This document shows positions 37,987 through 52,715 of a stretch of 60,081 bases of DNA, piece by piece. Made by a program: the position numbers and the translations under genes. The notes beneath the pieces are model-generated. The model was not told the DNA's origin. It saw only the letters and a list, made by a program, of their open reading frames with translations, and did not search any database. Position 1 is the first letter of the stretch. Each line of letters begins with the position of its first letter. This DNA is from Eubacteriales bacterium (GTDB lineage Bacteria; Bacillota; Clostridia; Oscillospirales; JAAYXM01): assembly GCA_045652405.1 (NCBI GenBank), contig JAZRUF010000107.1:1-60081 (forward strand), in the 5' to 3' direction.

Positions 37987-38063
37987 CGGGTTGTGGCTCA
38001 GTTTGGTAGAGCGCTGCGTTCGGGACGCAGAGGCCGCAGGTTCAAATCCTGTCAACCCGACCA
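37987..38063 (+). tRNA. tRNA-Pro (anticodon CGG), CCA encoded
   Basis: The cloverleaf folds by hand. Acceptor is CGGGTTG/CAACCCG, anticodon arm is CTGCG-ttCGGga-CGCAG, and T-arm is GCAGG-ttcaaat-CCTGT. Confidence 0.95.
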
Positions 38064-38067
38064 AAAT

Positions 38068-38103
38068 AAAGGAATCTCGAAAACCGAGGTTCCTTTGTTT
38101 TTT
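38068..38103 (+). terminator. intrinsic terminator of tRNA-Pro
   Basis: AAAGGAATCTCG-aaaac-CGAGGTTCCTTT followed by GTTTTTT. Confidence 0.85.
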
Positions 38104-38108
38104 GTTTA

Positions 38109-38270
38109 GATTGGGAGGATTTGAACCTTAAGAAGGCATGCGGAGAAAAGCAAAATACTCCGGTGGAGTGTTTTGCCGACGCATGGTGCGAAGACGGGTA
38201 CTGAGCGGTTAAACCGCTCGGTCGTCAAGCAAATAAGACGCGAAGCGGCTGTATCCTGTCAACCCGACCA
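38109..38270 (+). ncRNA. tRNA-3'-end-linked structured element, copy 1 (unclassified candidate ncRNA or miniature element)
   Basis: 5' arm 38116-38128 is the reverse complement of the tRNA-Pro T-arm (13/13). Hairpin A is 38151-38175 and the TGGTGCG box is 38184-38190. The bulged hairpin B GACG-GGT-ACTG...CGGT-CGTC is 38193-38226, and hairpin C (GAA loop) is 38236-38250. The tail 38253-38270 is identical to the last 18 nt of tRNA-Pro. Confidence 0.55.
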
Positions 38271-38274
38271 AAAT

Positions 38275-38310
38275 AAAGGAATCTCGTAAAACGAGGTTCC
38301 TTTGTTTTTT
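38275..38310 (+). terminator. intrinsic terminator (near-duplicate of 38068-38103)
   Basis: It has the same stem as the tRNA-Pro terminator, with 2 substitutions at the loop edge, followed by a T-tract. Confidence 0.8.
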
Positions 38311-38315
38311 GTTTA

Positions 38316-38338
38316 GATTGGGAGGATTTGAACCTTAA
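38316..38338 (+). repeat. truncated second copy of the element 5' arm
   Basis: GATTGGGAGGATTTGAACCTTAA repeats 38109-38131 exactly and then diverges. It belongs to an 86-bp direct repeat (38046-38131 versus 38253-38338). Confidence 0.85.
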
Positions 38339-38345
38339 ACAATAG

Positions 38346-38381
38346 GGAAAAAGAGAAACTCTCGTGAGAGTTTCTCTTTTT
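38346..38381. terminator. bidirectional hairpin terminator (serves the minus-strand CNNM gene)
   Basis: AGAGAAACTCTC/GAGAGTTTCTCT stem flanked by an A-tract and a T-tract. Confidence 0.8.
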
Positions 38382-38384
38382 CGT

Positions 38385-39656
38385 TTAGTCTTTGTTTTTT
38401 TCTTCATCTTCGGTTTGGACAGTGCGGATTACTTTTGCGAAAGCGACACGATGGGAATCGGTTTGCGTTACAATTATATTTAAATTCTCGTAAGTGAAGC
38501 GGTCACCTTTTACAGGTATTTTATCCAATTGCTCCATAATCCAACCACCGAGAGATACGCTATCTGCGTCTTCGTCGTCAATGTCAAAAAACTGGCAGAA
38601 GTCATTGAAATTTACTGTGCAGTCAACCAAGAATACGTTTTCGGATAATTCGCGGAAGGTAACTGTTACTTCATCGTGTTCATCCCATATTTCACCGACC
38701 AACTCTTCGAGTATATCTTCCATTGTGACAATACCTAAAGTGCCGCCGTATTCGTCAATGACGATTGCTATATGAGACTTGCGAGTTTGCAGAAGCTTGA
38801 GTAAGTCATCTATCTTCTCCGACTTATGTATAAACAGCGGAGGAGTGATGATGTCAGTCACTTCTTTTTCGGTTACACCTGAGCCGATATAAAAATCCTT
38901 CTGATGGATTATGCCAACGATATTGTCGATGTTTTCCTTGTATACCAACAAGCGTGAAAATCTTGACTCATTGAAAACGCGTGCTATTTCCTCCTTGGGT
39001 GCTTCAATAGGAACTGCTTCCAAATCTACACGGTGGGTTAAAATATCCTCGGCTTCCAAATCGCCAAACTCTATTGCGTTGCGTAAAAGGACACCTTCAT
39101 CAGTGTCAATGCTTCCTTCTTGCTCAACCTCGTCTACCAGAAGAAGTAACTCTTCCTGAGACATTTTTGAGTCTTCCTCTACGTTAAAAAGCTTAGATAT
39201 AAGCTTTTTCCACATAGAGAATAGGAAATTGATGGGGGTAAGTACCCAAATGAGCAGACGGATAAACGGAGCAGAAAACATTGCAAATTTTTCAGGGAAA
39301 TCCTTTGCTATGCTCTTTGGTGTTATCTCGCCGAAAATGAGGACTGCTATAGTTACTACAACCGTGGATACCGTAGCTCCGATATCGCCATATAAGTGGA
39401 CAAAAAGAACCGTGCCTATAGAGGCGACTGCAATGTTTACAATGTTATTCCCTACCAAGATTGTGGAAATCAGGCGGTCATATTGCTCGGAAAGAGCCAG
39501 TGCGAGTTCTGCCTTTCGGTTCCCTTTCTCCGACAGAGCTTTTAAGCGTGTCTTGTTAAGCGAGGAAAAAGCAGTTTCGGTTGCTGAAAAATACCCTGAG
39601 AATAGTATGCATAATGCCATAGATATAATATAGGGTAATATGTCACTTGCGGTCAT
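38385..39656 (-). CDS. CNNM/CorC-type membrane protein (DUF21 + CBS pair + CorC_HlyC; 'hemolysin family')
   Basis: N-terminal 4-TM DUF21 domain, a CBS pair, and a C-terminal transporter-associated domain. Confidence 0.9.
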   Translation of the reverse strand: MTASDILPYIISMALCILFSGYFSATETAFSSLNKTRLKALSEKGNRKAELALALSEQYDRLISTILVGNNIVNIAVASIGTVLFVHLYGDIGATVSTVVVTIAVLIFGEITPKSIAKDFPEKFAMFSAPFIRLLIWVLTPINFLFSMWKKLISKLFNVEEDSKMSQEELLLLVDEVEQEGSIDTDEGVLLRNAIEFGDLEAEDILTHRVDLEAVPIEAPKEEIARVFNESRFSRLLVYKENIDNIVGIIHQKDFYIGSGVTEKEVTDIITPPLFIHKSEKIDDLLKLLQTRKSHIAIVIDEYGGTLGIVTMEDILEELVGEIWDEHDEVTVTFRELSENVFLVDCTVNFNDFCQFFDIDDEDADSVSLGGWIMEQLDKIPVKGDRFTYENLNIIVTQTDSHRVAFAKVIRTVQTEDEEKNKD

Positions 39657-39883
39657 TGTTTTTTATTCTCTCCTTAAAATTAGTTGTTAAAATAGGTTTA
39701 GTTTTAAAAATCAGAGCCGAAAATAGATTTGCCGATGCATTGAAACGCAAAAAGGCATATCCACGAGGTGTTCTGACCGCGTGGATACGCCAGTATATAC
39801 ATATCTGCAACTGTAATGGTTTCCAGTTTCGTCGTCGCTACTGTCCATTTAAAATACTGTCTCCTAAAATACAAGTTTTTATT
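39657..39883 (-). promoter_or_regulatory. about 227-nt structured 5' leader (candidate riboswitch or attenuator)
   Basis: It lies between promoter 39884-39912 and the start codon. It contains an intrinsic terminator and repeated ACAGT/ACTGG segments that could pair alternatively. Confidence 0.45.
39746..39791 (-). terminator. leader (attenuator) terminator
   Basis: On the minus strand it reads GGCGTATCCACG-14 nt-CGTGGATATGCC followed by TTTTTG. It sits about 95 nt upstream of the start codon. Confidence 0.65.
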
Positions 39884-39912
39884 ATTGTACCAAAAAGGAA
39901 TTAAACTGTCAA
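39884..39912 (-). promoter_or_regulatory. sigmaA promoter TTGACA-17-TACAAT
   Basis: Read on the minus strand, TTGACA is at 39912-39907 and TACAAT at 39889-39884. Confidence 0.7.
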
Positions 39913-40027
39913 CACATGAGAGGGATTTTCTCTGCGATTAAATCAGGGTGTATAAGGATTGTGCGCGATTTTTTGAAAATGTAGATTGAAGTTTTAAAAG
40001 AAAAAATAAAAAAATTTAAATTTAGGG

Positions 40028-40056
40028 TTGATTTTAAAATAAAGATGTGGTATCAT
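40028..40056 (+). promoter_or_regulatory. sigmaA promoter TTGATT-17-TATCAT with TGn extension
   Basis: It lies about 30 nt upstream of tRNA-Arg. Confidence 0.6.
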
Positions 40057-40088
40057 AATAAAGCTGTCAACAAAACAGCGTGAAAAAT

Positions 40089-40165
40089 GCGCTCGTAGCT
40101 CAGCTGGATAGAGTGACTGGCTACGAACCAGTAGGTCAGGGGTTCGAGTCCCTTCGGGCGCGCCA
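40089..40165 (+). tRNA. tRNA-Arg (anticodon ACG), CCA encoded
   Basis: Acceptor is GCGCTCG/CGGGCGC, anticodon arm is ACTGG-ctACGaa-CCAGT, and T-arm is AGGGG-ttcgagt-CCCTT. Confidence 0.95.
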
Positions 40166-40170
40166 GAAAA

Positions 40171-40197
40171 AGCATCGACTATAGTCGGTGCTGTTTT
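40171..40197 (+). terminator. intrinsic terminator of tRNA-Arg
   Basis: AGCATCGAC-tata-GTCGGTGCT followed by GTTTTGTTTTG. Confidence 0.8.
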
Positions 40198-40216
40198 GTT
40201 TTGTTTTGTAAATGTC

Positions 40217-40378
40217 AGGAAAGGGACTCGAACCCTGAGAGGGCACGAACCGTGAAGCAAAACAGTCCGGTGGACTGTTTTGTAGGTGAGTGGTGCGCAG
40301 ACGGGTACTGAAAGGCAAAGCCTTTCGGTCGTCAAGCAGTGCGGTTGCAAAGCAATCGTTGTCCCTTCGGGCGCGCCA
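40217..40378 (+). ncRNA. tRNA-3'-end-linked structured element, copy 2
   Basis: 5' arm 40221-40235 is the reverse complement of the tRNA-Arg T-arm (15/15). Hairpin A is 40258-40282, the TGGTGCG box is 40291-40297 and hairpin B is 40300-40333. Hairpin C (AAA loop) is 40342-40358. The tail 40361-40378 is identical to the last 18 nt of tRNA-Arg. Confidence 0.55.
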
Positions 40379-40384
40379 CAAAAA

Positions 40385-40412
40385 AGCATCGACGATAGTC
40401 GGTGCTTTTTTT
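40385..40412 (+). terminator. intrinsic terminator (near-duplicate of 40171-40197)
   Basis: AGCATCGAC-gata-GTCGGTGCT followed by TTTTTTT. Confidence 0.8.
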
Positions 40413-40452
40413 GTTTTGTTTTGAAAAAACAAAAGTATTAAATATACAATAA

Positions 40453-40481
40453 TTGACGAAAACTTAAAATATTGATATACT
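40453..40481 (+). promoter_or_regulatory. sigmaA promoter TTGACG-17-TATACT
   Basis: It lies upstream of glnA. Confidence 0.55.
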
Positions 40482-40512
40482 TATAACAATAAAAAAACAG
40501 GAGTGAAGTAAT

Positions 40513-41937
40513 ATGTCCAAAAGTGTAAATGATATTATCGCGCTTATTAAAGAAAAAGATATTAAGATGGTTGACTTTAAAATGGTTGACATCAACGGTC
40601 AGTACCGTCACGTCACAATTCCTGCAAAGAACTTTTCAGAGGATACTATGAAAAGCGGTATCGGTTTTGATGCATCAAACTACGGTTACGCGGTTGTTGA
40701 AAAAAGTGACATGGTATTTATCCCTGACCCGGACACTGCCATGATAGATCCGTTTTGTGATGTTCCCACGATTTCGATGACGGGTAATGCAATGATTATA
40801 GATAATCCTGAAAATCGACCGCTTGCCCAGTACCCGAGAAACATTGTTCTGGCTGCAGAACAGTATATGAAGGATAGCGGGATAGCAGACACCATGCTTA
40901 TTCTGCCGGAGTTTGAGTTTTATCTCTTTGACCAGGTTGCATGGGATGTTCAGCCTAACAGCATCGGCATGACGCTTGATGCAAATCAGTCGTACTGGAA
41001 CAGCGCGTCTGACGGAATGGGATGTGTGGTTCCCAAACAGAAAAATTACCATATTGCAAAGCCGTTTGACCCGACGTATGAATGCCGCAGTGAAATGTGC
41101 ATGCTTATGGAAGAGGCGGGAATACCGATAAAGTATCATCATCCTGAGGTGGGTGCTTCCGGTCAGTTTGAAATCGAGCCAAACCTGGGTCAGATGTCCA
41201 AGATGGCGGACGCATCAATGATGATTAAGTATATAATACGCAATACCGCGCTTAAGTACGGAAAGACCGCGACGCTCATGCCCAAACCTGTGTACGGCGA
41301 GGCAGGCAACGGTATGCACGTGCATATTCTGCTTATGAAAGACGGTCAACCTGTATTCTCCGATGACAACGGATATTCAAACTTAAGTGAGACTGCACAT
41401 TATTTCATGGGCGGACTGTTAAAGCATATTGCATCTCTTTGTGCTATAACAAACCCTAGTACAAACTCATTTAAGCGACTGGTTCCAGGCTTCGAGGCTC
41501 CGGTAACTGTCGGATATGCAACATCAAACCGCAGCGCGGTTATAAGAATTCCGGCATACGCAAAGAGCCCGAATATGCGTCGCTTTGAGATTCGGAATCC
41601 CGATGCAACATGTAACCCATATTTCTGCTATGCTGCAATACTCATGGCAGGGCTTGACGGAATTAAGAATAAAATTGATCCTCATGCAAACGGCTGGGGT
41701 CCGTATGACGTAAATCTTTACAATCTGCCGGAAGAGGAAAAGGCGAAATTGAAGAGCCTGCCCACTTCACTTGAAGCGGCTCTTGATGCTCTTGAGGCGG
41801 ATAATGATTACCTGACCGCCGGAGGAGTATTCCCGAAAGAGCTTATAGAAAACTTCATTAAAACAAAGCGTGAGGAATGCCGTCAGCTTGCCGCAATTCC
41901 GCACCCCGCAGAATTCGATAAATATTATAATATGTAA
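40513..41937 (+). CDS. glnA: type I glutamine synthetase
   Basis: 474 aa with KPxxGxxGNGMHVH and NPYF motifs. Confidence 0.95.
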   Translation: MSKSVNDIIALIKEKDIKMVDFKMVDINGQYRHVTIPAKNFSEDTMKSGIGFDASNYGYAVVEKSDMVFIPDPDTAMIDPFCDVPTISMTGNAMIIDNPENRPLAQYPRNIVLAAEQYMKDSGIADTMLILPEFEFYLFDQVAWDVQPNSIGMTLDANQSYWNSASDGMGCVVPKQKNYHIAKPFDPTYECRSEMCMLMEEAGIPIKYHHPEVGASGQFEIEPNLGQMSKMADASMMIKYIIRNTALKYGKTATLMPKPVYGEAGNGMHVHILLMKDGQPVFSDDNGYSNLSETAHYFMGGLLKHIASLCAITNPSTNSFKRLVPGFEAPVTVGYATSNRSAVIRIPAYAKSPNMRRFEIRNPDATCNPYFCYAAILMAGLDGIKNKIDPHANGWGPYDVNLYNLPEEEKAKLKSLPTSLEAALDALEADNDYLTAGGVFPKELIENFIKTKREECRQLAAIPHPAEFDKYYNM

Positions 41938-41945
41938 GATAAAAA

Positions 41946-41981
41946 GGCTGTTGCAAACACAGGGTTGCAACAGCCTTTTTT
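41946..41981. terminator. bidirectional terminator between glnA and the convergent transporter gene
   Basis: GGCTGTTGCAA-8 nt-TTGCAACAGCC flanked by AAAAA and TTTTTT. Confidence 0.85.
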
Positions 41982-43353
41982 AATAATTAACTACGCCCAT
42001 TATTCCAAGTATAAATATAAGTGTTATTGTAATCGGTGCGATGTAGCGAACCATAGTTGTCCACGCTCTATGGAGGGGGAAAGTAAAGCGCCTGTTTTGA
42101 GATATTTCATCCACCGCATGATGCGCACCCCATATCCAGCCTGCAAAAAGGCAAAAGCCCAGGCTGCCCAAAGGAATGAGGAGATTATCGGTTATAAGCT
42201 CGAGCATATGACCTAACGGCGGGAATACTATTCCGTCACGCACGGTATACCATATTCCCTTTAATGGCAGCGCGCCTTGGGAAAGAGAATATAATATACT
42301 GATAGGCAGCATGCCGAGGCATGAGTAAAGCACGGATTTCGACCGCGAAAGCTTTTTTTCCTCACTAAGATATGCAACCGTGCCCTCCAAAAGCGCAATT
42401 GAACTTGTAAGGGCAGCAAAGCTTAAGAGAAGATAGAATAAGAGACCGTAGAACGTGCCGCCGGACATTTGTGAAAATACCTGCGGTAAGGCTACAAAGG
42501 CAAATACACCACCGGTACTAAGCTCAGTACCGGTTGAAAAAACTGCGGGGATTATGGTGAAGGCGGCGATTAATGCGATAAATGTATCAAACACACATAC
42601 GATTATTGAGCTGGTACTTAAGTTTTCATCTTTGCTCAAATATGAACCATATGTGCAAGTGGTGCCCAGACCGATGGATAGGGAGAAAAGAGCTTGCCCG
42701 AGAGCGGAGAGAAAATCCGAAGAAGTCAGGGAAGAAAAGTCGACGTTAACAAGGAATTTAACACCTTCGACTGCTCCGGGCATTCCGAGTGAATGTACCA
42801 TTATTACGATGAGAAGCACTATAAGAGCAGGCATGAGGATTTTGTTTGCCCGCTCGATGCCACCGGATATTCCGCGTAGTACAATGAAACCGGTGATGGC
42901 AAGGAACAAAACTCCCCACAAAATGGGTTCCCATATGCCTGATATGAAGCTATTGAAATATACCGAATAGTCTTTGGAAAAGTTTGCGCCGAAGAGATAT
43001 AAAAATGTGTATTTAAGAACCTGACCGCCAATGATGCTATAATATGCAAGCACAATGAAACCGCATACAATTCCCAAGTAACCGACGAAGGTCCATTTTC
43101 GGTTTAGCTTGCGGAATGCACCTATTGTGTTTAGCTGTGTTGAGCGCCCGACGGTTAATTCTGCGAGCATTACGGATATGCCTATTGTGAATACTATGGC
43201 TGTGTATATAAGTATATAGGCTCCGCCACCCGCAGCGCCTACTTTCCCGGGGAATTTCCATATATTACCCAAGCCGATTGCGCTTCCTGCGGCAGCAAAA
43301 ATAAATCCTATTTTGGATGACCATTGCCCGCGTTTTTCCTTTTCCACCCGCAT
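41980..43353 (-). CDS. sodium-dependent transporter (NSS/SNF family)
   Basis: Has the N-terminal WSSKIGFIFAAAGSAIGLGNIWKFP signature and about 11-12 TM segments. Confidence 0.9.
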   Translation of the reverse strand: MRVEKEKRGQWSSKIGFIFAAAGSAIGLGNIWKFPGKVGAAGGGAYILIYTAIVFTIGISVMLAELTVGRSTQLNTIGAFRKLNRKWTFVGYLGIVCGFIVLAYYSIIGGQVLKYTFLYLFGANFSKDYSVYFNSFISGIWEPILWGVLFLAITGFIVLRGISGGIERANKILMPALIVLLIVIMVHSLGMPGAVEGVKFLVNVDFSSLTSSDFLSALGQALFSLSIGLGTTCTYGSYLSKDENLSTSSIIVCVFDTFIALIAAFTIIPAVFSTGTELSTGGVFAFVALPQVFSQMSGGTFYGLLFYLLLSFAALTSSIALLEGTVAYLSEEKKLSRSKSVLYSCLGMLPISILYSLSQGALPLKGIWYTVRDGIVFPPLGHMLELITDNLLIPLGSLGFCLFAGWIWGAHHAVDEISQNRRFTFPLHRAWTTMVRYIAPITITLIFILGIMGVVNY

Positions 43354-43463
43354 ATTTCCTCCTTTTGTCTATCTTTGAGCATTGCTTAAAGTGTAGTATA
43401 CCCGAAAATGTTAGGATATTTTCAATAAAACGTAAAAATAATATGAATAATTGAGTTTGAGTC

Positions 43464-43492
43464 TTGACGCTTAAAAGCTTATTTTATATAGT
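43464..43492 (+). promoter_or_regulatory. sigmaA promoter TTGACG-17-TATAGT
   Basis: It overlaps the 5' end of track ORF 43464, which argues that the real start is the ATG at 43530. Confidence 0.55.
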
Positions 43493-43529
43493 ACTTATCA
43501 AATACATATATCAGGGGTTGTGTGAAACT

Positions 43530-44279
43530 ATGAACAAAACGAAGAAAAATCGAGGTCTTGCAGCGGTTTACTTTATTCTACGTGCCTTTGTGATAGTGGT
43601 AATGGTGCGTCAGGCGTGGATAGGAAATTATACAAACGTGATGCTTTGTGCACTTACACTTACTCTTTTTATGATACCGTCTTTTGTGGAAAAACGCATT
43701 AAAATTGATATACCCGATACACTTGAGGTAATTATACTTCTTTTTATATTCTCTGCGGAAATACTCGGCGAAATCAGAGAGTATTATATAACTTTCGAGT
43801 ATTGGGATATAATGCTTCATACGATAAATGGTTTCCTTATGGGGGCTATAGGATTTTCGCTTATTGATATTTTAAACCGCAATAAAAAATTTACCATTGA
43901 GATGTCGCCGCTTTTTGTGGCGATGGTCGCGTTTTGCTTTTCCATGACAATAGGGGTGATGTGGGAGTTTTATGAATATAGCATGGATAAATTCTTTATG
44001 ACGGATATGCAAAAGGACACCTATGTTTCACAGGTGTCCTCAGTCGAGCTTAATGAAAACGGTAAAAATTCTCCAAAGGTAGTGGATATTAAAAACGTAA
44101 GAATAAATGGTGAAGAATGGCAGGGGTATTTAGATATAGGCCTTACAGATACCATGCAAGACTTGTTTGTAAATTTTATAGGCGCGGCAGTTTTCTCAAT
44201 TATCGGTTATTTTTATATAAAAAGGCGCGCCAATATAGGAGTCATACGAAGACTTACACTCGTGTACAAAAAGGATTAA
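43530..44279 (+). CDS. integral membrane protein of unknown function
   Basis: About 6 TM segments. I cannot name a family with confidence. Confidence 0.65.
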   Translation: MNKTKKNRGLAAVYFILRAFVIVVMVRQAWIGNYTNVMLCALTLTLFMIPSFVEKRIKIDIPDTLEVIILLFIFSAEILGEIREYYITFEYWDIMLHTINGFLMGAIGFSLIDILNRNKKFTIEMSPLFVAMVAFCFSMTIGVMWEFYEYSMDKFFMTDMQKDTYVSQVSSVELNENGKNSPKVVDIKNVRINGEEWQGYLDIGLTDTMQDLFVNFIGAAVFSIIGYFYIKRRANIGVIRRLTLVYKKD

Positions 44280-44281
44280 TT

Positions 44282-46921
44282 TTATTCTTTTATCCTCTTC
44301 CTCTTTATGCTTAAGAAAATTCCGTTTAAAACAGGAACTGCCGCGCAGTAAGCGCAAATTATTCCAAGTTCATTTAAACTCAGAGGAACTGTGAAGAAAA
44401 TTTTTGCAAAAAACGGAGAATATATTCCCATGAATATCGCGGCAACGGATACTATAACCGATAAAAGAAGCGGGATGTTGTTAAACCAGTTTATTGATAA
44501 AAGTCCGCGTACTTCGCTTTTACATTCAAAAACATGTATAAGCTGAGTCATAACAAGTGTAAGGAGTGCAGCGGTGCGTCCGGTATCTATATTCCCGCTT
44601 CGATGATAGAGGGTGAAGAAAGCACCCAATGTAGTAAGTCCTATAAGGATACCGCGGGTTATTATTGTCGAGGCGAGACCTCTTGAAAAAACCGATTCAT
44701 CGGCATCGCGCGGTTTTAGCTCCATTATATCTTCTTCTGCAGGCTCAAGCCCAAGAGAAATTGCGGGAAGACTGTCGGTTATTAAATTTATAAGCAGTAT
44801 CTGTATCGGAATTAAAGGTACCGGGAGTCCGATAAGCATGGCGAGGAACATAGTCACAACCTCGCCGATATTGCATGAAAGCAGATAACGAATGAATTTG
44901 CGTATGTTTGAGTAAATAACGCGCCCTTCCTCAACTGCGCATACGAGGGTTGCAAAGTTATCATCCAAAAGGATTACGGATGCAGCTTCCTTTGTCACGT
45001 CAGTCCCTGTAACACCCATGGACACTCCGATATCCGCCTCTTTTACGGCGGGAGCATCGTTTACTCCGTCACCGGTCATTGCGACAATATCGCCACGCGA
45101 TTTAAACGCTTGCACTATGCGTAGTTTATGTGCCGGAGTGACTCTTGCAAATACCGAAACGTAGGGAAGTTCGCGGCTTAGAGTCTCATCACTCATCGCA
45201 TCGAGCTCAGCGCCGGTTATTATGCGGTCGCCGTCATTATAAATGCGTAGCTTGCCGGCGATTGCCTGTGCAGTAACTGCGTGGTCGCCGGTAATCATTA
45301 TCGGGCGTATACCTGCGCGTTTACATTTTTTAACCGCGTCATACGCTTCACGGCGAGGCGGGTCGAGAAGTCCGGCAAGACCTGCAAAGATGAGGTTTTC
45401 TTCATTTGCGTCTTCAGCACCTGAAGCCGTGCGATAAGCAAAGGCGAGAACGCGAAGAGCGTTTGAAGCCATGCGATTGTTTTGGGATAAAATCATGTGC
45501 CGAGTTCGTGTATCCATCAGTTTTACACCCGAAGGAGTTAAAACATGCGTACAGCGGCCTAGCAGTAAATCGGGCGCACCCTTTGTCATCATCTCAAATT
45601 TGCCTGAGGATTCGGCTATAACGCTCATGCGTTTGCGAGTCGAGTCAAATGGGATTTCACGGCATACTGACATACCAAGTTTTTCTCTTGTGATTTTTCC
45701 TTTTAGAGCAGCTATTAAAAGGGCAGCTTCTGTGGGTTCACCGGTCACATCTGCATAGGATTTTGAGTTTTTTATAAGCTTGCCGAAGCCACGGCTTCGG
45801 GAGGGTGAGGCGGTTGCGTTGTTACACACTGTTGCAATGGTTAAAAGCTTTTCAAGCTGAGGTGTTTCATTTGTTCTGACCGGAACTTTGCCGCAGGTAA
45901 AGGTGCCTTCCGTTTCAAGACCGGTTCCTAAAACATTGATTTCTCGGTTGGGAATATAAATTTGAGTCACGGTCATTCGGTTCTCGGTTAGGGTTCCGGT
46001 TTTATCTGAGCAAATGATGTTTGCGCATCCGAGCGTTTCTACCGCGTGCAATCGCCGGATTAATGCCTTTCTTTTTACCATGCGTTTTACGGATAAGGCG
46101 AGAGCTATCGTGACGATTGCGGGTAGTCCCTCCGGGACTGCGGCGACGGAAAGTGAAATACCGGTAAGGAGCATATCAAAAACCGGCTCGCCGCGCAGAA
46201 TTCCGGTAAGTGCGACTATGGCACAGATGAAAAGACAGCCAATACCTATGTATTTACTAAGCTGTGCCAGACGGTTTTGCAAAGGTGTGGGTTGAGTATG
46301 TATACTTCCAAGCATTCCCGCAATTTTTCCCATTTCGGTCAAGTCACCTGTTTGGCGAACGCGCAGTAGACCTTTACCGCGGGTGACTAAGGTTCCCATG
46401 TACACCTTGCTTTTTTCTGAGGAGTCGCTTTCGCTTTTTGCAGCGGTCTTTTCGACCCCGCAGGATTCGCCACTCAACATAGATTCATCGCATGTAAGCT
46501 CATTTGATGTGATAAGTATTCCGTCAGCGGGGATACGGTCACCTGCGCGGAGTGAAACCAAATCGCCGGGAACAATAAGGTTTGCCCGGATTTTGATTTC
46601 ATGTCCATCGCGTATTACCGATGCCGTGGGTGCGGCAAGTTCACCGAGCTTTTCCAAGGTTTTTTCGGTTTTAAATTCCTGGATAAAGCCCATAAGAGCG
46701 TTTATGAAAATAATCGCACTTATCGTCATCGCCTCGGTAATTTCTCCCATAAAAAGCGAGAGAAGAGTTGCGGCGAGCAATATCATAATAAGCGCATCCC
46801 GAAACTGGCTTGCAAGTATTTTAAATGCTCCGTTTGACTTGCGCTTGCTTATTGAGTTCTCACCATAGCGGGTGAGAAGTTCATTGGCTGCGCGTGTACT
46901 TAAACCTTGGTATTCTGCCAT
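44282..46921 (-). CDS. P-type ATPase, Ca2+-transporting (P2A/PMCA-SERCA-like)
   Basis: Has DKTGTLT, TGDH, MTGDGVNDAP and 10-TM architecture with the PEGLP motif. Confidence 0.9.
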   Translation of the reverse strand: MAEYQGLSTRAANELLTRYGENSISKRKSNGAFKILASQFRDALIMILLAATLLSLFMGEITEAMTISAIIFINALMGFIQEFKTEKTLEKLGELAAPTASVIRDGHEIKIRANLIVPGDLVSLRAGDRIPADGILITSNELTCDESMLSGESCGVEKTAAKSESDSSEKSKVYMGTLVTRGKGLLRVRQTGDLTEMGKIAGMLGSIHTQPTPLQNRLAQLSKYIGIGCLFICAIVALTGILRGEPVFDMLLTGISLSVAAVPEGLPAIVTIALALSVKRMVKRKALIRRLHAVETLGCANIICSDKTGTLTENRMTVTQIYIPNREINVLGTGLETEGTFTCGKVPVRTNETPQLEKLLTIATVCNNATASPSRSRGFGKLIKNSKSYADVTGEPTEAALLIAALKGKITREKLGMSVCREIPFDSTRKRMSVIAESSGKFEMMTKGAPDLLLGRCTHVLTPSGVKLMDTRTRHMILSQNNRMASNALRVLAFAYRTASGAEDANEENLIFAGLAGLLDPPRREAYDAVKKCKRAGIRPIMITGDHAVTAQAIAGKLRIYNDGDRIITGAELDAMSDETLSRELPYVSVFARVTPAHKLRIVQAFKSRGDIVAMTGDGVNDAPAVKEADIGVSMGVTGTDVTKEAASVILLDDNFATLVCAVEEGRVIYSNIRKFIRYLLSCNIGEVVTMFLAMLIGLPVPLIPIQILLINLITDSLPAISLGLEPAEEDIMELKPRDADESVFSRGLASTIITRGILIGLTTLGAFFTLYHRSGNIDTGRTAALLTLVMTQLIHVFECKSEVRGLLSINWFNNIPLLLSVIVSVAAIFMGIYSPFFAKIFFTVPLSLNELGIICAYCAAVPVLNGIFLSIKRKRIKE

Positions 46922-47043
46922 TTCATAATACCTTCCTTTCAGCGGTTGTCCTTAATACTTATGATAAAAAAGAAGAGTATATGACGTGCCGCCCGAAGCT
47001 GAACGGCGGAATGAAAAAAATTTTATTTTTCTTAAAATAACTC

Positions 47044-47072
47044 TTGTGTTTTTAAAAAATGTGTGATAGAAT
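47044..47072 (+). promoter_or_regulatory. sigmaA promoter TTGTGT-17-TAGAAT with TGn extension
   Basis: It lies about 20 nt upstream of tRNA-Leu(CAG). Confidence 0.6.
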
Positions 47073-47092
47073 ATTAAAGCTGATTATCATTT

Positions 47093-47179
47093 GCGGATAT
47101 GGCGGAATCGGCAGACGCGCTAGATTCAGGTTCTAGTCGGGGCAACTCGGTGGAGGTTCAAGTCCTCTTATCCGCACCA
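47093..47179 (+). tRNA. tRNA-Leu (anticodon CAG), type II, CCA encoded
   Basis: Acceptor is GCGGATA/TATCCGC, anticodon arm is CTAGA-ttCAGgt-TCTAG. It has a long variable arm and the T-arm GGAGG-ttcaagt-CCTCT. Confidence 0.95.
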
Positions 47180-47181
47180 AA

Positions 47182-47214
47182 AGCTACCCATTGAGGGTAG
47201 CTTTTATTTTTTTT
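47182..47214 (+). terminator. intrinsic terminator of tRNA-Leu(CAG)
   Basis: AGCTACCC-attga-GGGTAGCT followed by TTTTATTTTTTTT. Confidence 0.85.
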
Positions 47215-47218
47215 CTTT

Positions 47219-47375
47219 AAAAGAGGACTTGAATCTTAAGAAGGCAACGAGCGTACAAAAAACGATTCATAATCGTTTTTAGCGAAGTTGGTGCGCAGAC
47301 GGGTACTGAAAGGCGCTGCCTTTAGGTCGTCAAGCAAGTAAGACGCGAAGCGACTGTGTCCTCTTATTCGCACCA
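47219..47375 (+). ncRNA. tRNA-3'-end-linked structured element, copy 3
   Basis: 5' arm 47221-47236 is the reverse complement of the tRNA-Leu T-arm (15/16). Hairpin A, at 47258-47280, has a completely different stem sequence from the other copies. The TGGTGCG box is 47289-47295, hairpin B is 47298-47331 and hairpin C (GAA loop) is 47341-47355. The tail 47358-47375 matches 17/18 of the tRNA-Leu(CAG) 3' end. Confidence 0.55.
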
Positions 47376-47380
47376 AAAAC

Positions 47381-47413
47381 GATAAGGTTCTAAAAGAATC
47401 TTGTCTTTTTTTA
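47381..47413 (+). terminator. intrinsic terminator (unrelated in sequence to 47182-47214)
   Basis: GATAAGGTTC-taaaa-GAATCTTGTC (2 G.U pairs) followed by TTTTTTT. Confidence 0.7.
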
Positions 47414-49025: not shown

Positions 49026-49107
49026 ACCTGCAGGGGAAAGAAAATGCAGTGGGGAGGAGTTGCGCGAGAGGGCATCTCCTCTTTTTACATGTGTGGGATT
49101 AAGGGAT

Positions 49108-49725
49108 ATGAGCAGAGTGGAGATAGGGAAATTATTCCTGTGCGTGATTTCCATTATAAGCTTGATGGGGTGTAAGGAAGAAAATTACAGCATTTCCATA
49201 AAACATGAAGAAATCTATATGGATGTTAACAGTGTGTGCAATTTACCTGCAATAGTATCTCCGAGCGATGCGGAGGTTACATACCACAGCTCGGATGAAA
49301 GTATAGCTTGGTACAGCAACGATTTACTCATTTCAGGAAAACCCGGAAAATGTGTAGTATACGTGACAGCCGGAGATTCGGCAAGTGAATTGGTTACCGT
49401 GCACGTGCATGATTTTTTAAAAGAAGCAGGCGAGCTTCGTGAAAGGATAGAAAAGCTGTACACAGAAGGGCGAATGAGCGAATTTATCGCCAAGGAACTT
49501 AGCTTAAGATATAACACATTTCCGGATTATGCAAAGTCCGTGGTTGATAATTTTTATATAGTAAGCATGTATAGGGATTACAGCGACGAAAAGCAGGTGT
49601 ATATCACACAGTCCGGCAAGAAATACCACGAGGTAGGATGTGGTAAGCTTAAGGGCCATGTGCGCGCGATACCATATAATCTTGCCCTAATTGAGGGTAT
49701 GACGGCGTGTACGCAGTGCAACTGA
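49108..49725 (+). CDS. lipoprotein with Ig-like (Big_2-type) domain and a C-terminal KYH..C..(n)..CxxC motif
   Basis: Lipobox SLMGC, an Ig-like segment (VTYHSSDESIAWYSN...GKCVVYVTAGD), and a C-terminal GKKYHEVGCGKL...CTQCN. The start is uncertain: 49060 on the track, 49108 preferred. Confidence 0.6.
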   Translation: MSRVEIGKLFLCVISIISLMGCKEENYSISIKHEEIYMDVNSVCNLPAIVSPSDAEVTYHSSDESIAWYSNDLLISGKPGKCVVYVTAGDSASELVTVHVHDFLKEAGELRERIEKLYTEGRMSEFIAKELSLRYNTFPDYAKSVVDNFYIVSMYRDYSDEKQVYITQSGKKYHEVGCGKLKGHVRAIPYNLALIEGMTACTQCN

Positions 49726-49827
49726 GTTATAAGGATAAAATAACCACGAAAAATAAGGGAACTTTATGGGCATGTACTATGTCATAATTATAGAGATATT
49801 AAAAAGAGACCTCCGGAGGATAAAGAG

Positions 49828-52176
49828 ATGAATTTTTTTAGGAAAGTGACCGCGTTGGTGTTTGTTGCGGTGCTTGCAGTACAGATGTTTTCTGCAATGC
49901 CAGCAGCTAAAGCCGCACAAGCTGATATGCGCGCTGTGTGGGTATCAACCATATACGGTTTGGATTACCCGAATAAAGCCACAACAAATCCGCAGGAGCT
50001 GATGGAGCAGGCGGATGTGATAATTGCAAACACTAAGGCTATGGGGATGAATGCGATAATTCTTCAGGTAAGACCATCTGCGGATGCTCTTTATAAGTCG
50101 GATTTATTTCCTTGGAGCAAGTATTTAACCGGAAGTCAGAACATTGCACCGGAGGATGGATTTGACCCGCTTGAGTACTGGGTGGCAAAAGCGCACGAAA
50201 ATGGGCTTGAGCTTCATGCGTGGGTAAATCCGTTTCGCATTGCAGTAAGTGAGGATGAGTATAATTCGCTTTCGGATAAAAATCCAGCGCGTATTAATCC
50301 GCAGTGGGTTGTAGAGCACGGCGGGCAATATTACTTTAATCCGGGGATAGAAGAAGTGCGCGAGCTAATTGTAACCGGAGTAGAAGAAATTATTGCTAAT
50401 TACCCTGTAGACGGAATTCATCTTGATGACTATTTTTATCCTGCATCCTCTTTTGCCGATGAGGATACATACGCAGAATACGGCAGTGGGTTTAAAGAGA
50501 TTGGCGATTGGCGGCGCGATAATATAAATAAGTTGGTCTCATCACTCAGCGAGGTGGCGGACAGAAAGGACCGTGAGGTAAAGTTCGGAATAAGCGTAGC
50601 CGGAATATGGGCTAATGCGAAGAATATGGATGGCGGTTCCGACACCGGCGGAAATCAAAGCTATTTTTCAAGCTATGCAGATTCGCGTGAGTGGGTAAAG
50701 AGAGAGTGGGTGGATTATATTTGCCCGCAGATATACTGGTATATAGGGCATAGCCTGGCAGATTACCAAACACTCGTTAATTGGTGGGCGGATACCGTCA
50801 AAGACAGCGATGTTTCACTCTACATCGGAATGGCAGATTATCAGGCGGGGAATGCCGATACTACAAGCCCTTGGCACGGAATAAAGGAGATAAAACGGCA
50901 GACTGAGCTCAACCGCAGTATTCCGGAGATAACCGGAGAAGTGCATTTCAGATACAAGTTCTTAGCTGAGAACGAGGATTTGTATTTGTTCTACCGTCAG
51001 TTATACGGCGGTGAAGGATACAGTGCATATCAGGAAAAGAAGCTTATAACACATCCGGCATATATGCAAGGCTCGAAAAATAAGTTTAAGCCGGACGGAA
51101 AGCTTACGCGTGCAGAAGCTGCTATTCTTTTTGCAAGGCTTATGACTGATGAGGACGGAAAAGCAATTTTTGATGAGAATTCAAACTATAAGACCTCGTT
51201 TAAGGACGTTTCCAAAAATGCGTGGTATGCCAATGCAGTAGGCTTTATGGAAAAGCATAAGGTGATATCAGGATATTCAGACGGAACATATCTTCCGGAT
51301 AAAACCATAACACGCGCTGAATTTACAGCACTTGTCGCGCGTTTTGAAGGTGATGAGAAGGAGATTACAAGCACAGATTTTCAGGATGTATCGGATGCGC
51401 ACTGGGCAGCTGGGTATATAGCAAGTTCGGTAAAGAAAGGGTATATTTCAGGATATGGTGACGGAAGCTTTAAACCGGAAAATCAGATAACGCGTGCGGA
51501 GACGGTTAAAATAGTAAATCGCATGCTTGGAAGAGCACCGGATAAAGGATATATCGACAGCGCGCCCGGCGTAAATTCCTTTACTGATATTACACCTAAG
51601 CACTGGGCATATTACGAGGTTATGGAAGCGACATATGAGCATAAATGCGCGGTGGAAGCCGGAGTAGAGGAGTGGGACGACAGCGACGGAAAGCCGATGA
51701 TACCTTATATCTCCGATACCTTTAAATTTGTATTGCCTGACCTTATTACCACAGACCCGCTTGTGCCTTTGGATTTGAGTAAAATTGAGGGCCTTGCACT
51801 CCATCACATGGCGCACCCGACTGCGGACTTTAAAACCGTGGAAAAATGGCACTTGAACCAAGGGTGGAGAGCGTTTGGATATAATTTCTGGATTGATTTT
51901 AAAGGGAATGTCTATGTAGGTCGCGGATGGAATGTGGGCGCAGGTGTAGCAAACCGCAACAGTACCCTGATTAGCATTGGATTCCAAGGTGATTATGAAG
52001 ATACTAATAAAAAAATGCCGACTGCGCAGTACAAGGCGGGCGTTGAGCTTATAAAGTGGATAGCTGAGCGTGTTCCGAGTGTTAAAGAGGTGGGTGGGCA
52101 TTGCGATTATAATGCCACACTGTGCCCAGGCAAGTATTTTCCGCTAAAAAAGATGCGGATTGAGGCGGGATTTTAA
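49828..52176 (+). CDS. secreted multidomain wall enzyme: GHL10 (DUF187) glycosyl-hydrolase-like domain + 3 SLH repeats + N-acetylmuramoyl-L-alanine amidase (Amidase_2)
   Basis: Signal peptide, then a MRAVWVST...HAWVNPF block. Three repeats of the F.DV....WA...V......ISGY.DG.F.P...ITRAE type follow. The C-terminus has HH.A....DF..V..WH...GW...GYNF.I...G. Confidence 0.8.
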   Translation: MNFFRKVTALVFVAVLAVQMFSAMPAAKAAQADMRAVWVSTIYGLDYPNKATTNPQELMEQADVIIANTKAMGMNAIILQVRPSADALYKSDLFPWSKYLTGSQNIAPEDGFDPLEYWVAKAHENGLELHAWVNPFRIAVSEDEYNSLSDKNPARINPQWVVEHGGQYYFNPGIEEVRELIVTGVEEIIANYPVDGIHLDDYFYPASSFADEDTYAEYGSGFKEIGDWRRDNINKLVSSLSEVADRKDREVKFGISVAGIWANAKNMDGGSDTGGNQSYFSSYADSREWVKREWVDYICPQIYWYIGHSLADYQTLVNWWADTVKDSDVSLYIGMADYQAGNADTTSPWHGIKEIKRQTELNRSIPEITGEVHFRYKFLAENEDLYLFYRQLYGGEGYSAYQEKKLITHPAYMQGSKNKFKPDGKLTRAEAAILFARLMTDEDGKAIFDENSNYKTSFKDVSKNAWYANAVGFMEKHKVISGYSDGTYLPDKTITRAEFTALVARFEGDEKEITSTDFQDVSDAHWAAGYIASSVKKGYISGYGDGSFKPENQITRAETVKIVNRMLGRAPDKGYIDSAPGVNSFTDITPKHWAYYEVMEATYEHKCAVEAGVEEWDDSDGKPMIPYISDTFKFVLPDLITTDPLVPLDLSKIEGLALHHMAHPTADFKTVEKWHLNQGWRAFGYNFWIDFKGNVYVGRGWNVGAGVANRNSTLISIGFQGDYEDTNKKMPTAQYKAGVELIKWIAERVPSVKEVGGHCDYNATLCPGKYFPLKKMRIEAGF

Positions 52177-52193
52177 GCGTTTGTAAATGGAGT

Positions 52194-52238
52194 AACCGTG
52201 AGGACAATTTACCGTCCTCACGGTTGAAAAAATTTTTT
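52194..52238 (+). terminator. intrinsic terminator
   Basis: AACCGTGAGGAC-8 nt-GTCCTCACGGTT, then a T-run after a short A-run. Confidence 0.7.
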
Positions 52239-52258
52239 GAGTTTTTTTGATTTCAGTA

Positions 52259-52287
52259 TTGACAAATACGATAAAAACAGATATAAT
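52259..52287 (+). promoter_or_regulatory. consensus sigmaA promoter TTGACA-17-TATAAT
   Basis: Exact hexamers lie about 30 nt upstream of tRNA-Leu(GAG). Confidence 0.8.
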
Positions 52288-52318
52288 AGTCCTGCTGCTG
52301 TAAAAATGGCGGCGATGC

Positions 52319-52402
52319 GCGAGTGTGCTGGAACTGGCAGACAGGCACGTTTGAGGGGCGTGTGCTTATGGCGTACGGGTTCAAGTCCCGTCACTCGCAC
52401 CA
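52319..52402 (+). tRNA. tRNA-Leu (anticodon GAG), type II, CCA encoded
   Basis: Acceptor is GCGAGTG/CACTCGC, anticodon arm is CACGT-ttGAGgg-GCGTG. It has a long variable arm and the T-arm ACGGG-ttcaagt-CCCGT. Confidence 0.9.
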
Positions 52403-52405
52403 AAT

Positions 52406-52437
52406 AAAAAAAGAACACCTATGGGTGTTCTTTTTTT
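52406..52437 (+). terminator. intrinsic terminator of tRNA-Leu(GAG)
   Basis: AGAACACC-tatg-GGTGTTCT followed by TTTTTT. Confidence 0.85.
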
Positions 52438-52450
52438 ATTTTATGATATC

Positions 52451-52598
52451 AGAAGGGACTTGAAGCCTAAGAGGGTTTTTGCGTAAAACAAAACAGTCCG
52501 GTGGACTGTTTTGTAGCAAAAAGGTGCGAAGACGGGTACTGCAAAGCGGTCGTCGAGCAAATAGTATGCGAAGCATACGTGTCCCGTCACTCGCACCA
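52451..52598 (+). ncRNA. tRNA-3'-end-linked structured element, copy 4
   Basis: 5' arm 52455-52464 is the reverse complement of the T-loop and T-stem of tRNA-Leu(GAG) (10/10, with partial matches beyond). Hairpin A is 52489-52513 and the GGTGCGA box is 52523-52529. Hairpin B, at 52531-52554, is minimal (ACTGC-aaa-GCGGT). Hairpin C (GAA loop) is 52564-52578. The tail 52581-52598 is identical to the last 18 nt of the tRNA. Confidence 0.55.
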
Positions 52599-52601
52599 AA
52601 T

Positions 52602-52633
52602 AAAAAAAGAACACCTATGGGTGTTCTTTTTTT
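52602..52633 (+). terminator. intrinsic terminator (exact duplicate of 52406-52437)
   Basis: It is part of the 54/54 identical direct repeat 52385-52438 = 52581-52634. Confidence 0.85.
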
Positions 52634-52715
52634 AGCTTATGTGGCAGAATTTTGACATAAAAAGGCGATGCAATTTAAATAGTTGCACCGCCTTTTCGCT
52701 TTATGCGAGGAAACA

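Follow-up and report, generated by a model that had tools for sequence, protein, structure and literature searches.

A folded element after each of four tRNA genes in a gut Clostridia contig, tentatively read as a non-autonomous mobile element of tRNA and tmRNA gene 3' ends

Each of the four tRNA genes in the window, by which we mean the whole 60,081-nucleotide stretch of DNA analysed here, is followed by an uncatalogued folded sequence of about 150 nt. We tentatively interpret these sequences as members of a non-autonomous mobile family that settles specifically at the 3' ends of tRNA and tmRNA genes, a reading to which we grant somewhat less than an even chance. The mobile unit of about 200 bp consists of an A-rich trailer with an intrinsic terminator, a short spacer, a 5' arm, and a body of about 125 nt. 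It inserts directly 3' of a tRNA gene and duplicates about 18 bp of the recipient (positions 59 to ~76), the inner edge of the duplication being fixed in the T-loop, between positions 58 and 59, and the outer edge lying at the 3' end of the gene. Since the tRNA gene is left intact and the unit supplies a terminator, insertion should come at a low cost to the host.

ARAGORN located exactly four tRNA genes in the window, all on the + strand. The core GGTGCGMAGACGGGTACTG occurs four times on this strand, compared to 0.01 occurrences expected by chance in the window, and a covariance model scored the four elements at 127-146 bits. Together, these results bear out the initial annotation of the window, which had placed an element after each tRNA gene at coordinates within a few bases of those from the covariance model. 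The features, all on the + strand, are as follows.

37987-38063 (+): tRNA-Pro(CGG), target gene (ARAGORN); positions 59-76 are 38046-38063
38064-38112 (+): A-rich trailer, intrinsic terminator, and spacer of the Pro locus, which travel with the element at related loci
38113-38252 (+): Pro element without its tail (covariance-model match 38113-38270); in order, arm (inverted T-hairpin, ~38114-38127), P1b hairpin, P2, hairpin A, invariant core (38185-38230), and hairpin C
38253-38270 (+): Pro tail, 18/18 identical to tRNA-Pro positions 59-76, apparent target duplication
38271-38382 (+): second terminator copy and a decaying, 3'-truncated second unit, with a partial arm (~38316-38338) and a hairpin (38347-38382), probably left over from hairpin A
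40089-40165 (+): tRNA-Arg(ACG), target gene (ARAGORN)
40166-40219 (+): trailer, terminator (40171-40192 plus T-run), and spacer of the Arg locus
40220-40360 (+): Arg element without its tail (covariance-model match 40220-40378); arm, P1b, P2, hairpin A, core (40292-40338), and hairpin C
40361-40378 (+): Arg tail, 18/18 identical to tRNA-Arg positions 59-76
40379-40420 (+): repeated terminator 3' of the Arg tail, deleted in the close relative L033
47093-47179 (+): tRNA-Leu(CAG), target gene (ARAGORN)
47180-47220 (+): terminator (47179-47205) and spacer of the Leu-CAG locus
47221-47357 (+): Leu-CAG element without its tail (covariance-model match 47221-47375), of the 'CGATT..AATCG' hairpin A subfamily
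47358-47375 (+): Leu-CAG tail, 17/18 identical to tRNA-Leu(CAG) positions 59-76
47376-47412 (+): different terminator (47381-47405) 3' of the Leu-CAG tail, probably the gene's original one
52319-52402 (+): tRNA-Leu(GAG), target gene (ARAGORN)
52403-52451 (+): trailer, terminator, and spacer of the Leu-GAG locus
52452-52580 (+): Leu-GAG element without its tail (covariance-model match 52452-52598), with a short hairpin B
52581-52598 (+): Leu-GAG tail, 18/18 identical to tRNA-Leu(GAG) positions 59-76
52599-52634 (+): repeated terminator 3' of the Leu-GAG tail

The tail identities and the inverted T-arm copies listed in the initial annotation are both real. An 18-nt tail copy is indeed present in all four elements, but in three of them the direct repeat exceeds 18 nt: that of Pro extends through the terminator into the second, decaying partial copy, with remnants to 38382, and those of Arg and Leu-GAG take in the terminator. 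The tail, which had been described as the element's own end, instead looks like a duplication of the insertion target. Terminator-like hairpins lie on both sides of each window element, and a search for a promoter of the element's own found none. As had been stated, no integrase, transposase, or reverse transcriptase lies nearby, the neighbours in the window being housekeeping genes. The upstream terminator as part of the mobile unit, the tail as a target-site duplication, the tmRNA targets, and the other body types described below were absent from the initial annotation.

The tRNA-sense strand adopts a ten-helix fold with strong covariation support. Paired cells amount to 90.7%, compared to 34-49% in slid (shifted) controls, compensatory changes are seen in 38 of 48 pairs, and none of 500 shuffles reached the observed values. 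Furthermore, the invariant U.G pair of the core fits the + strand only, which supports the structural half of an earlier hypothesis, that of a tRNA-sense structured RNA; presentation or sequestration of a 3'-end mimic would be a further, hypothetical property. The body is composed of P1b, P2, hairpin A, a bulged core helix, hairpin B, and hairpin C. The core contains some 30 invariant nucleotides, and the internal loops are GA-rich. P1b is a small covarying hairpin at a site that had been taken for a conserved arm end, YTRAGARGG. Orthologous copies in close relatives differ by compensatory substitutions, and in a second orthologous pair the element shows no changes within flanks that have diverged by ~5%. 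Such structure-preserving change and strong conservation in place are no less compatible with an RNA useful to the host than with one that is purely selfish.

The family comprises at least 123 covariance-model matches in 100 sources (Clostridia MAG contigs), carried by uncultured gut Clostridia, with subfamilies common to many genomes and tRNAs. At least 25 isoacceptors carry the element, as do tmRNA genes at their 3' ends; in tRNA operons it sits after the last tRNA. An arm-and-tail element of some type is found at ~60-95% of the tRNA operon ends of carrier genomes, several other operon ends having none. Additional body types follow the same arm-and-tail logic. Tabulating the tails against their tRNAs, as the initial annotation had proposed, we compared the 87 elements with a same-strand tRNA at most 400 nt upstream: the tail equals positions 59-76 without a mismatch in 63/87 and with one mismatch in 11/87. 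At tRNA genes without an encoded CCA the tails likewise have none, which makes the gene, and not the mature tRNA, the source of the copied tail. The inner boundary of the repeat lies at position 59 in nearly all copies, and the tail remains perfect even where the repeat spans only 18-24 nt.

The arm repeats, in inverted orientation, the T-hairpin of the adjacent tRNA itself (positions 51-63). The perfect inverted repeat begins and stops sharply, at positions 51 and 63, and in locus L105 it reaches position 76. The arm follows the neighbour's T-arm at position 57 (match 0.98, control 0.46), position 59 (0.95, control 0.36), and position 51 (0.92, control 0.50). Position 57 of the T-loop is tracked by the arm, yet has no pairing partner within the element. 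Taken together, the tRNA 3' end, the terminator, which is itself palindromic and bidirectional, and the arm make up a single extended quasi-palindrome. Body similarity did not correlate with T-arm similarity, so that a choice of target by the arm is hypothetical.

Among the three hypotheses initially put forward, a miniature site-specific or retro-type element targeting the T-loop and 3' end of tRNA genes is the best supported; a cis effect on tRNA maturation or read-through is neither favoured nor contradicted by the data. Two loci of the same genome, Leu-GAG (L092) and Pro-GGG (L098), are identical in trailer and terminator (52/52 nt), share the arm, and are 97-98% identical in the body. Both copies of positions 59-76 are nevertheless of the locus's own type at all three diagnostic positions, and the Pro locus retains a different terminator 3' of the tail. 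Shared trailer, terminator, arm, and body between recipient-specific copies of positions 59-76 therefore define the mobile unit as terminator, spacer, arm, and body. A second case of a shared terminator was observed at Pro-TGG and Leu-TAG loci. As in SINE-like elements, the target-site duplication consists of recipient sequence. The donor terminator moved with the element in two cases. Further support comes from tandem identical units with 3'-decaying distal copies, from an ectopic, 5'-truncated, and permuted copy (L110), and from an identical tRNA-Arg gene that carries no element in a related genome (L118). Classical target-primed insertion predicts many 5'-truncated copies, which counts against this reading: L110 is the only clear case, and most partial copies miss their 3' part, which we attribute to decay of older distal units.

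As intermediate we postulate a transcript that starts at the tRNA promoter and reads through, transcription being assumed to pass the upstream terminator; this would explain why the donor trailer and terminator travel along, as in 5' transduction. The RNA tail (positions 59-76) would pair with the bottom strand of a tRNA gene nicked between positions 58 and 59, and the nicked strand would prime copying of the body by target-primed reverse transcription, while the arm would pair with the displaced top strand (positions 51-66). The 5' junction may then be resolved within the homologous tRNA 3' end, with a putative polymerase and nuclease supplied in trans. The arm may be kept matched to the T-arm by hairpin-templated correction, for which the quasi-palindrome of tRNA 3' end, terminator, and arm would provide the basis, by selection for pairing, or by both.

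A more far-reaching proposal, which we consider rather unlikely, is that of a natural RNA-guided insertion system. One RNA would read both strands, the arm recognising top-strand positions 51-66 and the tail bottom-strand positions 59-76, and would direct nicking and priming to two sites, the T-loop and the 3' end, in whichever tRNA or tmRNA gene is the target. As the guide segments would be rewritten from each new target, the element would reprogram itself. In a variant of this proposal, the body would be a small ribozyme of a new kind, by which the final 18 nt of the cognate tRNA are swapped.

It is also conceivable, although we think it doubtful, that the element is a non-coding RNA of benefit to the host, encoded in the tRNA 3' trailer and acting on the cognate tRNA. 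The arm would serve as an internal guide, with positions 51-58 as 5' exon and 59-66 as 3' exon, paired in the order known for P10 and P1 from the guides of group I introns. The tail would provide a reserve 3' end, and the body, as a small ribozyme or a scaffold for protein, would exchange or mend the final 18 nt or act as a chaperone of 3' processing, copies having arisen at new tRNAs by duplication. Selection in place, as seen in the orthologous pairs, argues for such a role, as do the invariant core with its GA-rich loops, the tails that stay perfect in short repeats, the tracking of unpaired position 57, and the high occupancy of operon ends. However, the identical tRNA-Arg gene of L118 and several operon ends do without the element, which is thus dispensable, and tandem, truncated, and ectopic copies together with terminator co-transfer are hallmarks of a mobile element. 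Where group I introns have a conserved G, the element has a Y before its tail; no known splicing ribozyme is as small as the body, no Rfam ribozyme matches it, and a strong terminator lies upstream of the element.

Direct repeats of a tRNA 3' end around inserted DNA are the classic signature of integrase-dependent elements, and the window copies display them. A miniature integrative element, analogous to a CIME or satellite island and mobilised by a tyrosine integrase encoded elsewhere, would have the repeats as attL and attR and the body as the recombinase-binding part of attP. True integrase-borne islands do occur at the same tRNA genes: in L076, an integrase lies beside a displaced tRNA-Lys half in a separate island, and displaced tRNA halves are also found in L039, L050, L054, L055, L085, and L033. 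Moreover, cargo of 1.5-3 kb lies between tRNA and arm in L027 and L095. The integrases seen in these loci are part of separate islands, and no recombinase adjoins the window copies. We regard this explanation as improbable. An attP copy predicts a donor-type or chimeric flank after the Leu-to-Pro jump, whereas both flanks are of recipient type, and a single family serves at least 25 different tRNAs. The repeat begins at position 59, so only two T-loop bases are included and the full 7-bp overlap region is absent. Conserved stems with G.U pairs indicate a single-stranded form, and no copy was found in 2.9 million viral contigs or in plasmid and phage collections.

The least probable reading is a passive, REP-like, terminator-associated palindrome without dedicated machinery, spread by replication template switching or gene conversion between tRNA loci, which are heavily transcribed, fork-stalling sites, with arm and tail as products of snap-back and microhomology events; the junctions of the L092/L098 transfer fall in 6-nt identities (ACCAAA, GTCCCG), so a template switch could also yield it, and both the quasi-palindrome and the coincidence of elements with rearrangement points (the L067 hybrid; the difference between the window and L118) agree with this, but the invariant ~30-nt core, the ten-helix covariation, the fixed boundary at position 59, and the subfamilies across many genomes and tRNAs would go unexplained.

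Should the mobile-element reading hold, bacteria would possess an equivalent of SINE-like retroelements, or else a new kind of RNA-guided mobile element, that makes use of two universal features of tRNA and tmRNA genes, the T-loop and the 3' end, and leaves the genes unharmed. Such elements would form a new class of structured RNA with some 30 invariant nucleotides, explain many of the 'tRNA fragments' and tandem terminators that stand unannotated in genomes of gut Clostridia, and mark rearrangement hotspots. They would also point to an enzyme that cuts or primes at two landmarks of tRNA genes and could be a programmable tool. Even if it served the host, a trailer RNA specific to its tRNA and equipped with a guide and a reserve 3' end would have no precedent among tRNA-associated RNAs.

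In line with the initial view that the core belongs to no known RNA family, Rfam 15 returned only tRNA matches at gathering score and nothing credible on the elements at E<=10, likewise for a long variant and related loci; membership in any Rfam 15 family was rejected, with no assignment at or near gathering score. A literature sequence search gave no match, no known system matching the element was found, and none of the copies has a linked gene for a reverse transcriptase, nuclease, integrase, or transposase. A T-box leader was rejected on inspection, as the UGGU-like segment stays constant with U73 or C73 tRNAs; there is also no Rfam T-box match and no consistent orientation of downstream genes. 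REP/REPIN and other palindromic repeats are likewise short, structured, and intergenic, often act as terminators, and reach many copies per genome, whereas the element is strictly linked to tRNA and tmRNA genes and has a target-derived arm and tail and a multi-helix core in place of a single hairpin.

Casposons, which use a Cas1-type integrase, insert at the 3' ends of tRNA genes and duplicate 14-15 bp of the gene's end. The element is far smaller and was rejected as a casposon: its unit ends are not inverted repeats, its left end varies, and no Cas1 or polymerase genes lie nearby. In tRNA-integrating islands and CIMEs, direct repeats of the tRNA 3' end also bracket the insert, the gene stays intact, and units accrete in tandem. 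In contrast, the element has a unit of only ~200 bp without an integrase, at least 25 tRNAs used by one family, recipient-type repeats on both sides after a jump between tRNAs, and a body conserved as a single-strand fold.

With guide-bearing RNAs (group I P1/P10, group II EBS/IBS, IS110 bridge RNA, TnpB omega RNA), the element shares a constant scaffold with site-matched segments. Its arm, complementary to positions 51-58 and 59-66, spans both sides of the 58/59 boundary in P10-then-P1 order, like a both-exon internal guide, which is a resemblance only. A group I intron, defined by a P3-P9 catalytic core, a guanosine-binding P7, and a terminal G, was rejected, given no Intron_gpI match at E<=10, a body of ~125 nt, and a T or C before the tail in place of the conserved G of such introns. 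Arm and tail match opposite DNA strands, as the guides of IS110 bridge RNA do; IS110 was rejected, as there is no adjacent DEDD recombinase and the duplication is 18 bp, not a dinucleotide. A scaffold followed by an ~18-nt 3' segment recalls TnpB omega RNA; IS200/IS605 was rejected as no tnpA or tnpB lies nearby and an 18-bp duplication is present. Guide-bearing systems are not known to make such a duplication or to have their guides rewritten for each new target.

SINE/LINE-type target-primed elements, including Dictyostelium TRE and yeast Ty3, resemble the element in being short and non-autonomous, with target-site duplications, apparent carriage of upstream donor sequence (as in 5' transduction), an occasional 5'-truncated ectopic copy, and a link to tRNA genes. 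Unlike them, the element resides in bacteria, has no known partner reverse transcriptase, duplicates a fixed part of the tRNA gene (positions 59-76) instead of a variable site, ends in neither poly-A nor a simple 3' tail, and repeats the T-hairpin of its target in inverted orientation.

All four tRNA genes of the window lie on the + strand (ARAGORN), and each is followed by a terminator-like hairpin and then by one copy of a single repeat family, a folded element of about 150 nt. As delimited by R1, the covariance model of the element, the copies are:

38113-38270, + strand, element copy after tRNA-Pro
40220-40378, + strand, element copy after tRNA-Arg
47221-47375, + strand, element copy after tRNA-Leu-CAG
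52452-52598, + strand, element copy after tRNA-Leu-GAG

The initial annotation had described four tRNA-docked copies, each ending in the 3' end of its own tRNA, and four are found, with tails (copies of tRNA positions 59-76) matching at 18/18, 18/18, 17/18 and 18/18 positions. The 18-nt tail is present as described, but the direct repeat extends further: in the Pro copy it continues past the terminator into a second, partial arm, and in the Arg and Leu-GAG copies it takes in the terminator. The core GGTGCGMAGACGGGTACTG occurs four times in the window, against 0.01 occurrences expected by chance. The flanking genes are of the housekeeping type (peptidase, pseudouridine synthase, CorC-family transporter, glutamine synthetase, transporters and a LacI-type regulator), and none of them encodes a recombinase or reverse transcriptase. 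The convergent CorC-family gene (38385-39656, - strand) ends at a perfect bidirectional terminator-like hairpin of 16 bp (38347-38382), which looks like the hairpin A remnant of a decayed second unit, now reused as a terminator. At L033, the orthologue of window 40379-40420 in a close relative, the post-tail terminator is lost through a 37-nt deletion and the tail abuts the glnA promoter region, indicating that the downstream terminator is dispensable.

A scan of species-representative genomes places the family in at least 117 contigs; among the matches listed, nearly all hosts are uncultured gut Clostridia (Oscillospiraceae, Acutalibacteraceae, Congzhengia and Ruminococcus sp.). The predicted tracking of the neighbouring tRNA by the tail holds across the family: among the matches listed, 87 elements have a same-strand tRNA at most 400 nt upstream, and their tails differ from its positions 59-76 by no mismatch in 63/87 and by one in 11/87. 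The targets comprise at least 25 tRNA isoacceptors as well as tmRNA genes, to which the family is strictly linked; this specificity is demonstrated, as is the common architecture. Within tRNA operons the element sits after the last tRNA. Many apparent exceptions to this linkage are tRNA genes split or pushed away by integrase-borne islands or other cargo, where the displaced tRNA half or 3' end still adjoins the element; others lie at contig ends or have truncated tails. Ordinary integrative islands use these tRNA and tmRNA genes too, entering at the 3' end or in the anticodon loop. At L076 the 3' end of the integrase gene adjoins the displaced tRNA-Lys half, and island-displaced tRNA fragments are also seen at L039, L050, L054, L055, L085, L033, L005, L025, L041 and L090. 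Because the fragment displaced by an island lies immediately upstream of the element, a tRNA 3' end is present three times in some regions.

The arm is, as first proposed, an inverted copy of the neighbour's own T-hairpin, matching it at position 57 with a frequency of 0.98, compared with 0.46 for non-cognate tRNAs, and at position 59 with 0.95, compared with 0.36. Its perfect repeat has sharp limits at tRNA positions 51 and 63, with one copy reaching position 76. Arm position 57 is unpaired within the element, which ties the arm directly to the tRNA or its gene. Selection of similar T-arms by the arm is not supported, body similarity being uncorrelated with T-arm similarity. Arm tracking may arise from hairpin-templated correction, given that tRNA end, palindromic terminator and arm together make a single long quasi-palindrome; it may also arise from selection.

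A conserved fold of the tRNA-sense strand is demonstrated, with the following parts:

P1, arm paired with tail positions 59-66
P1b, small hairpin
P2a and P2b, helices
Hairpin A, helix
Core helix, UGC/GCA, then GACG/CGUC, a GGU bulge, then ACUG/CGGU
Hairpin B, helix
Hairpin C, helix with a G/A-N-A triloop

In 122 distinct sequences aligned to R1, an alignment that is model-fitted and hence biased towards structure, standard pairs occupy 90.7% of cells, as against 34-49% with slid partners; 38/48 pairs show changes on both sides, and none of 500 shuffles matches the observed pairing values. RNAalifold on a MAFFT alignment independently recovers P1, hairpin A, the core helix and hairpin B. An invariant U·G pair and other G·U pairs of the + strand become C·A mismatches on the opposite strand; these pairs fit the + strand only, which excludes a minus-strand tRNA-like gene or a retrovirus-like primer-binding site. 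Single-sequence folding energy does not discriminate between the strands (z = -3.7 and -4.1). A T-box-like UGGN:NCCA pairing was rejected, as the discriminator base shows no covariation. Furthermore, the copies are constrained in place, since the Pro copy is unchanged in a relative with about 5% flank divergence, in which the extra partial arm decays, and the Arg copy and its orthologue differ at 11 sites, among them two pairs with full compensation and several G·U/G-C switches.

Movement between tRNA loci is demonstrated by L092 (tRNA-Leu-GAG) and L098 (tRNA-Pro-GGG), two loci of the same genome. Trailer and terminator are the same in both (52/52 nt), the arm is shared and the bodies are 97-98% identical, and the 18-nt flanks are both Leu-type at L092 and both Pro-type at L098 (all three diagnostic positions). 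The terminator after the L098 tail differs from the shared one. By this comparison the mobile unit extends from trailer and terminator through spacer and arm to the body, and its insertion at about 76|77 duplicates the recipient's positions 59-76, which makes the tail a target duplication. Rolling-circle or attP models, in which the unit brings its own 59-76, are excluded because the left repeat in L098 is recipient-type. In a second, older case the Pro-TGG and Leu-TAG loci have the terminator in common; older related pairs share only the arm-to-body stretch, their arms already fitted to each tRNA. Where the tRNA gene does not encode CCA, the tail lacks it too; the tail source is therefore the gene and not mature tRNA, and priming by the CCA end of the tRNA itself is likewise excluded. 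A snap-back origin of tail and terminator is ruled out, the repeat being direct, not inverted. Tandem identical units occur at L011, L105 and L076, and behind about half of the copies lie a second terminator and a partial unit that fades with distance, which we read as older distal units decaying behind a retained terminator. An ectopic copy at L110 begins inside hairpin A, continues through tail and terminator into a partial arm, and has 97% identity to the unit at L097, in the same genome.

A clean filled-versus-empty orthologous pair was sought via the CorC-family flanking gene; synteny was rearranged, and one locus was informative. This locus, L118, from a related genome (flanking protein 84% identical), has an identical tRNA-Arg gene without the element. 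Compared with L118 3040-3561, window 40166-47375 contains an additional segment of about 7.5 kb bounded by two elements and carrying glnA, an SNF-family transporter, a P-type ATPase and tRNA-Leu-CAG. The element at L067 is a hybrid with a Pro-type arm and a Gln-type body and tail. From this hybrid and the window/L118 difference, elements seem to act as recombination points.

These data bear on what the element is. A trailer RNA useful to the host, offering a guide and a spare 3' end, would fit the selection on copies in place, but is at odds with the dispensability of the element and with its mobile-element hallmarks. A passive palindromic repeat would leave the invariant core and ten covarying helices unexplained. 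Both the recipient-type repeats and the range of targets, at least 25, contradict an integrase-dependent mini-island.

For the mobile structured RNA element, the left end of the unit is not fixed, being whatever sequence follows the donor tRNA, and a search for a promoter of its own found none; a read-through transcript from the strong tRNA promoter would thus be the simplest intermediate. We postulate that such a transcript would bring the donor trailer along, as in 5' transduction. A bottom-strand nick at 58|59 would create a 3' end that forms an 18-nt duplex with the RNA tail, a ready primer for copying of the body. The displaced strand of the T-arm would be the pairing partner of the arm, and the 18-bp duplication would then follow from a break in the top strand where the gene ends. 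The weak points of this mechanism are that few 5'-truncated copies were found and that body similarity shows no link to T-arm similarity. The L092/L098 junctions of recent transfer fall in 6-nt identities, and a template switch during replication could exploit such stretches as well.

In the same genomes, unrelated-looking bodies of 90-180 nt follow the same arm-and-tail logic (inverted T-arm, structured middle, tRNA 3'-end copy), often with a hairpin having a CCGGUGG loop, after Ser-GCT, Tyr, Ala-GGC and Arg-ACG genes:

L111 338-441, + strand, after tRNA-Arg-ACG; the repeat begins at position 54
L020, after tRNA-Tyr 6672-6756
L099, after tRNA-Ala-GGC
L016 and L045, after tRNA-Ser-GCT

Their layout points to a wider superfamily of arm-and-tail elements. 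At L071, a Gut-1 RNA (RF01706) match lies just past an element (1121-1196, +) as part of short-hairpin arrays at 650-900 and 1100-1320, with similar sequence in L038, L095, L027 and L065. These arrays have spacer words like 'GTGAAAT' or 'GCTAAAT', close with CATCTAAACCGTTCGGCTCTTCC and a terminator, and are located between tRNA and arm or after the tail; they look like a second repeat family at the same tRNA-proximal sites. A conserved extra module of about 115 nt, AATCGAGCCTGAGCGCTGCC.GTGGCAGATGAAGCGAAGGCGCAGAG..GTGC.GCGGTCG...CGGGCACCGCAAAC, lies at about 4563-4678 (-) of L022 and recurs in L021 (3' end of the locus), L095 and L027; it is inserted between P1b and hairpin A in some copies, or lies near tRNA ends, and has no Rfam match. 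Near-identical post-tail sequences are shared by L008 and L105 (GTCGAGWGCCTCGACACGCA..CGCGTA) and, as a terminator, by L056 and L109 (CGTCGGAACAAGTT..GCTTGTTCCGATTTT), in each case at different tRNA loci of different genomes, which hints that further terminator-like modules are also mobile.

With respect to known families, the novelty first suggested for the element is borne out by Rfam 15, which gives no match to it (gathering score and E<=10); on the window, ten related loci and a long variant, the only matches are tRNA, rRNA and the one Gut-1 match beside an element. The core pattern has no match among 2.9 million viral contigs, nor does BLAST match the element in plasmid and phage collections. 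Literature searches by topic and core sequence returned no description, and none of the papers searched has the core sequence in a relevant context. The element is real, widespread and uncatalogued and most likely represents a new kind of non-autonomous mobile structured RNA element, aimed at the T-loop and 3' end of tRNA-like genes.
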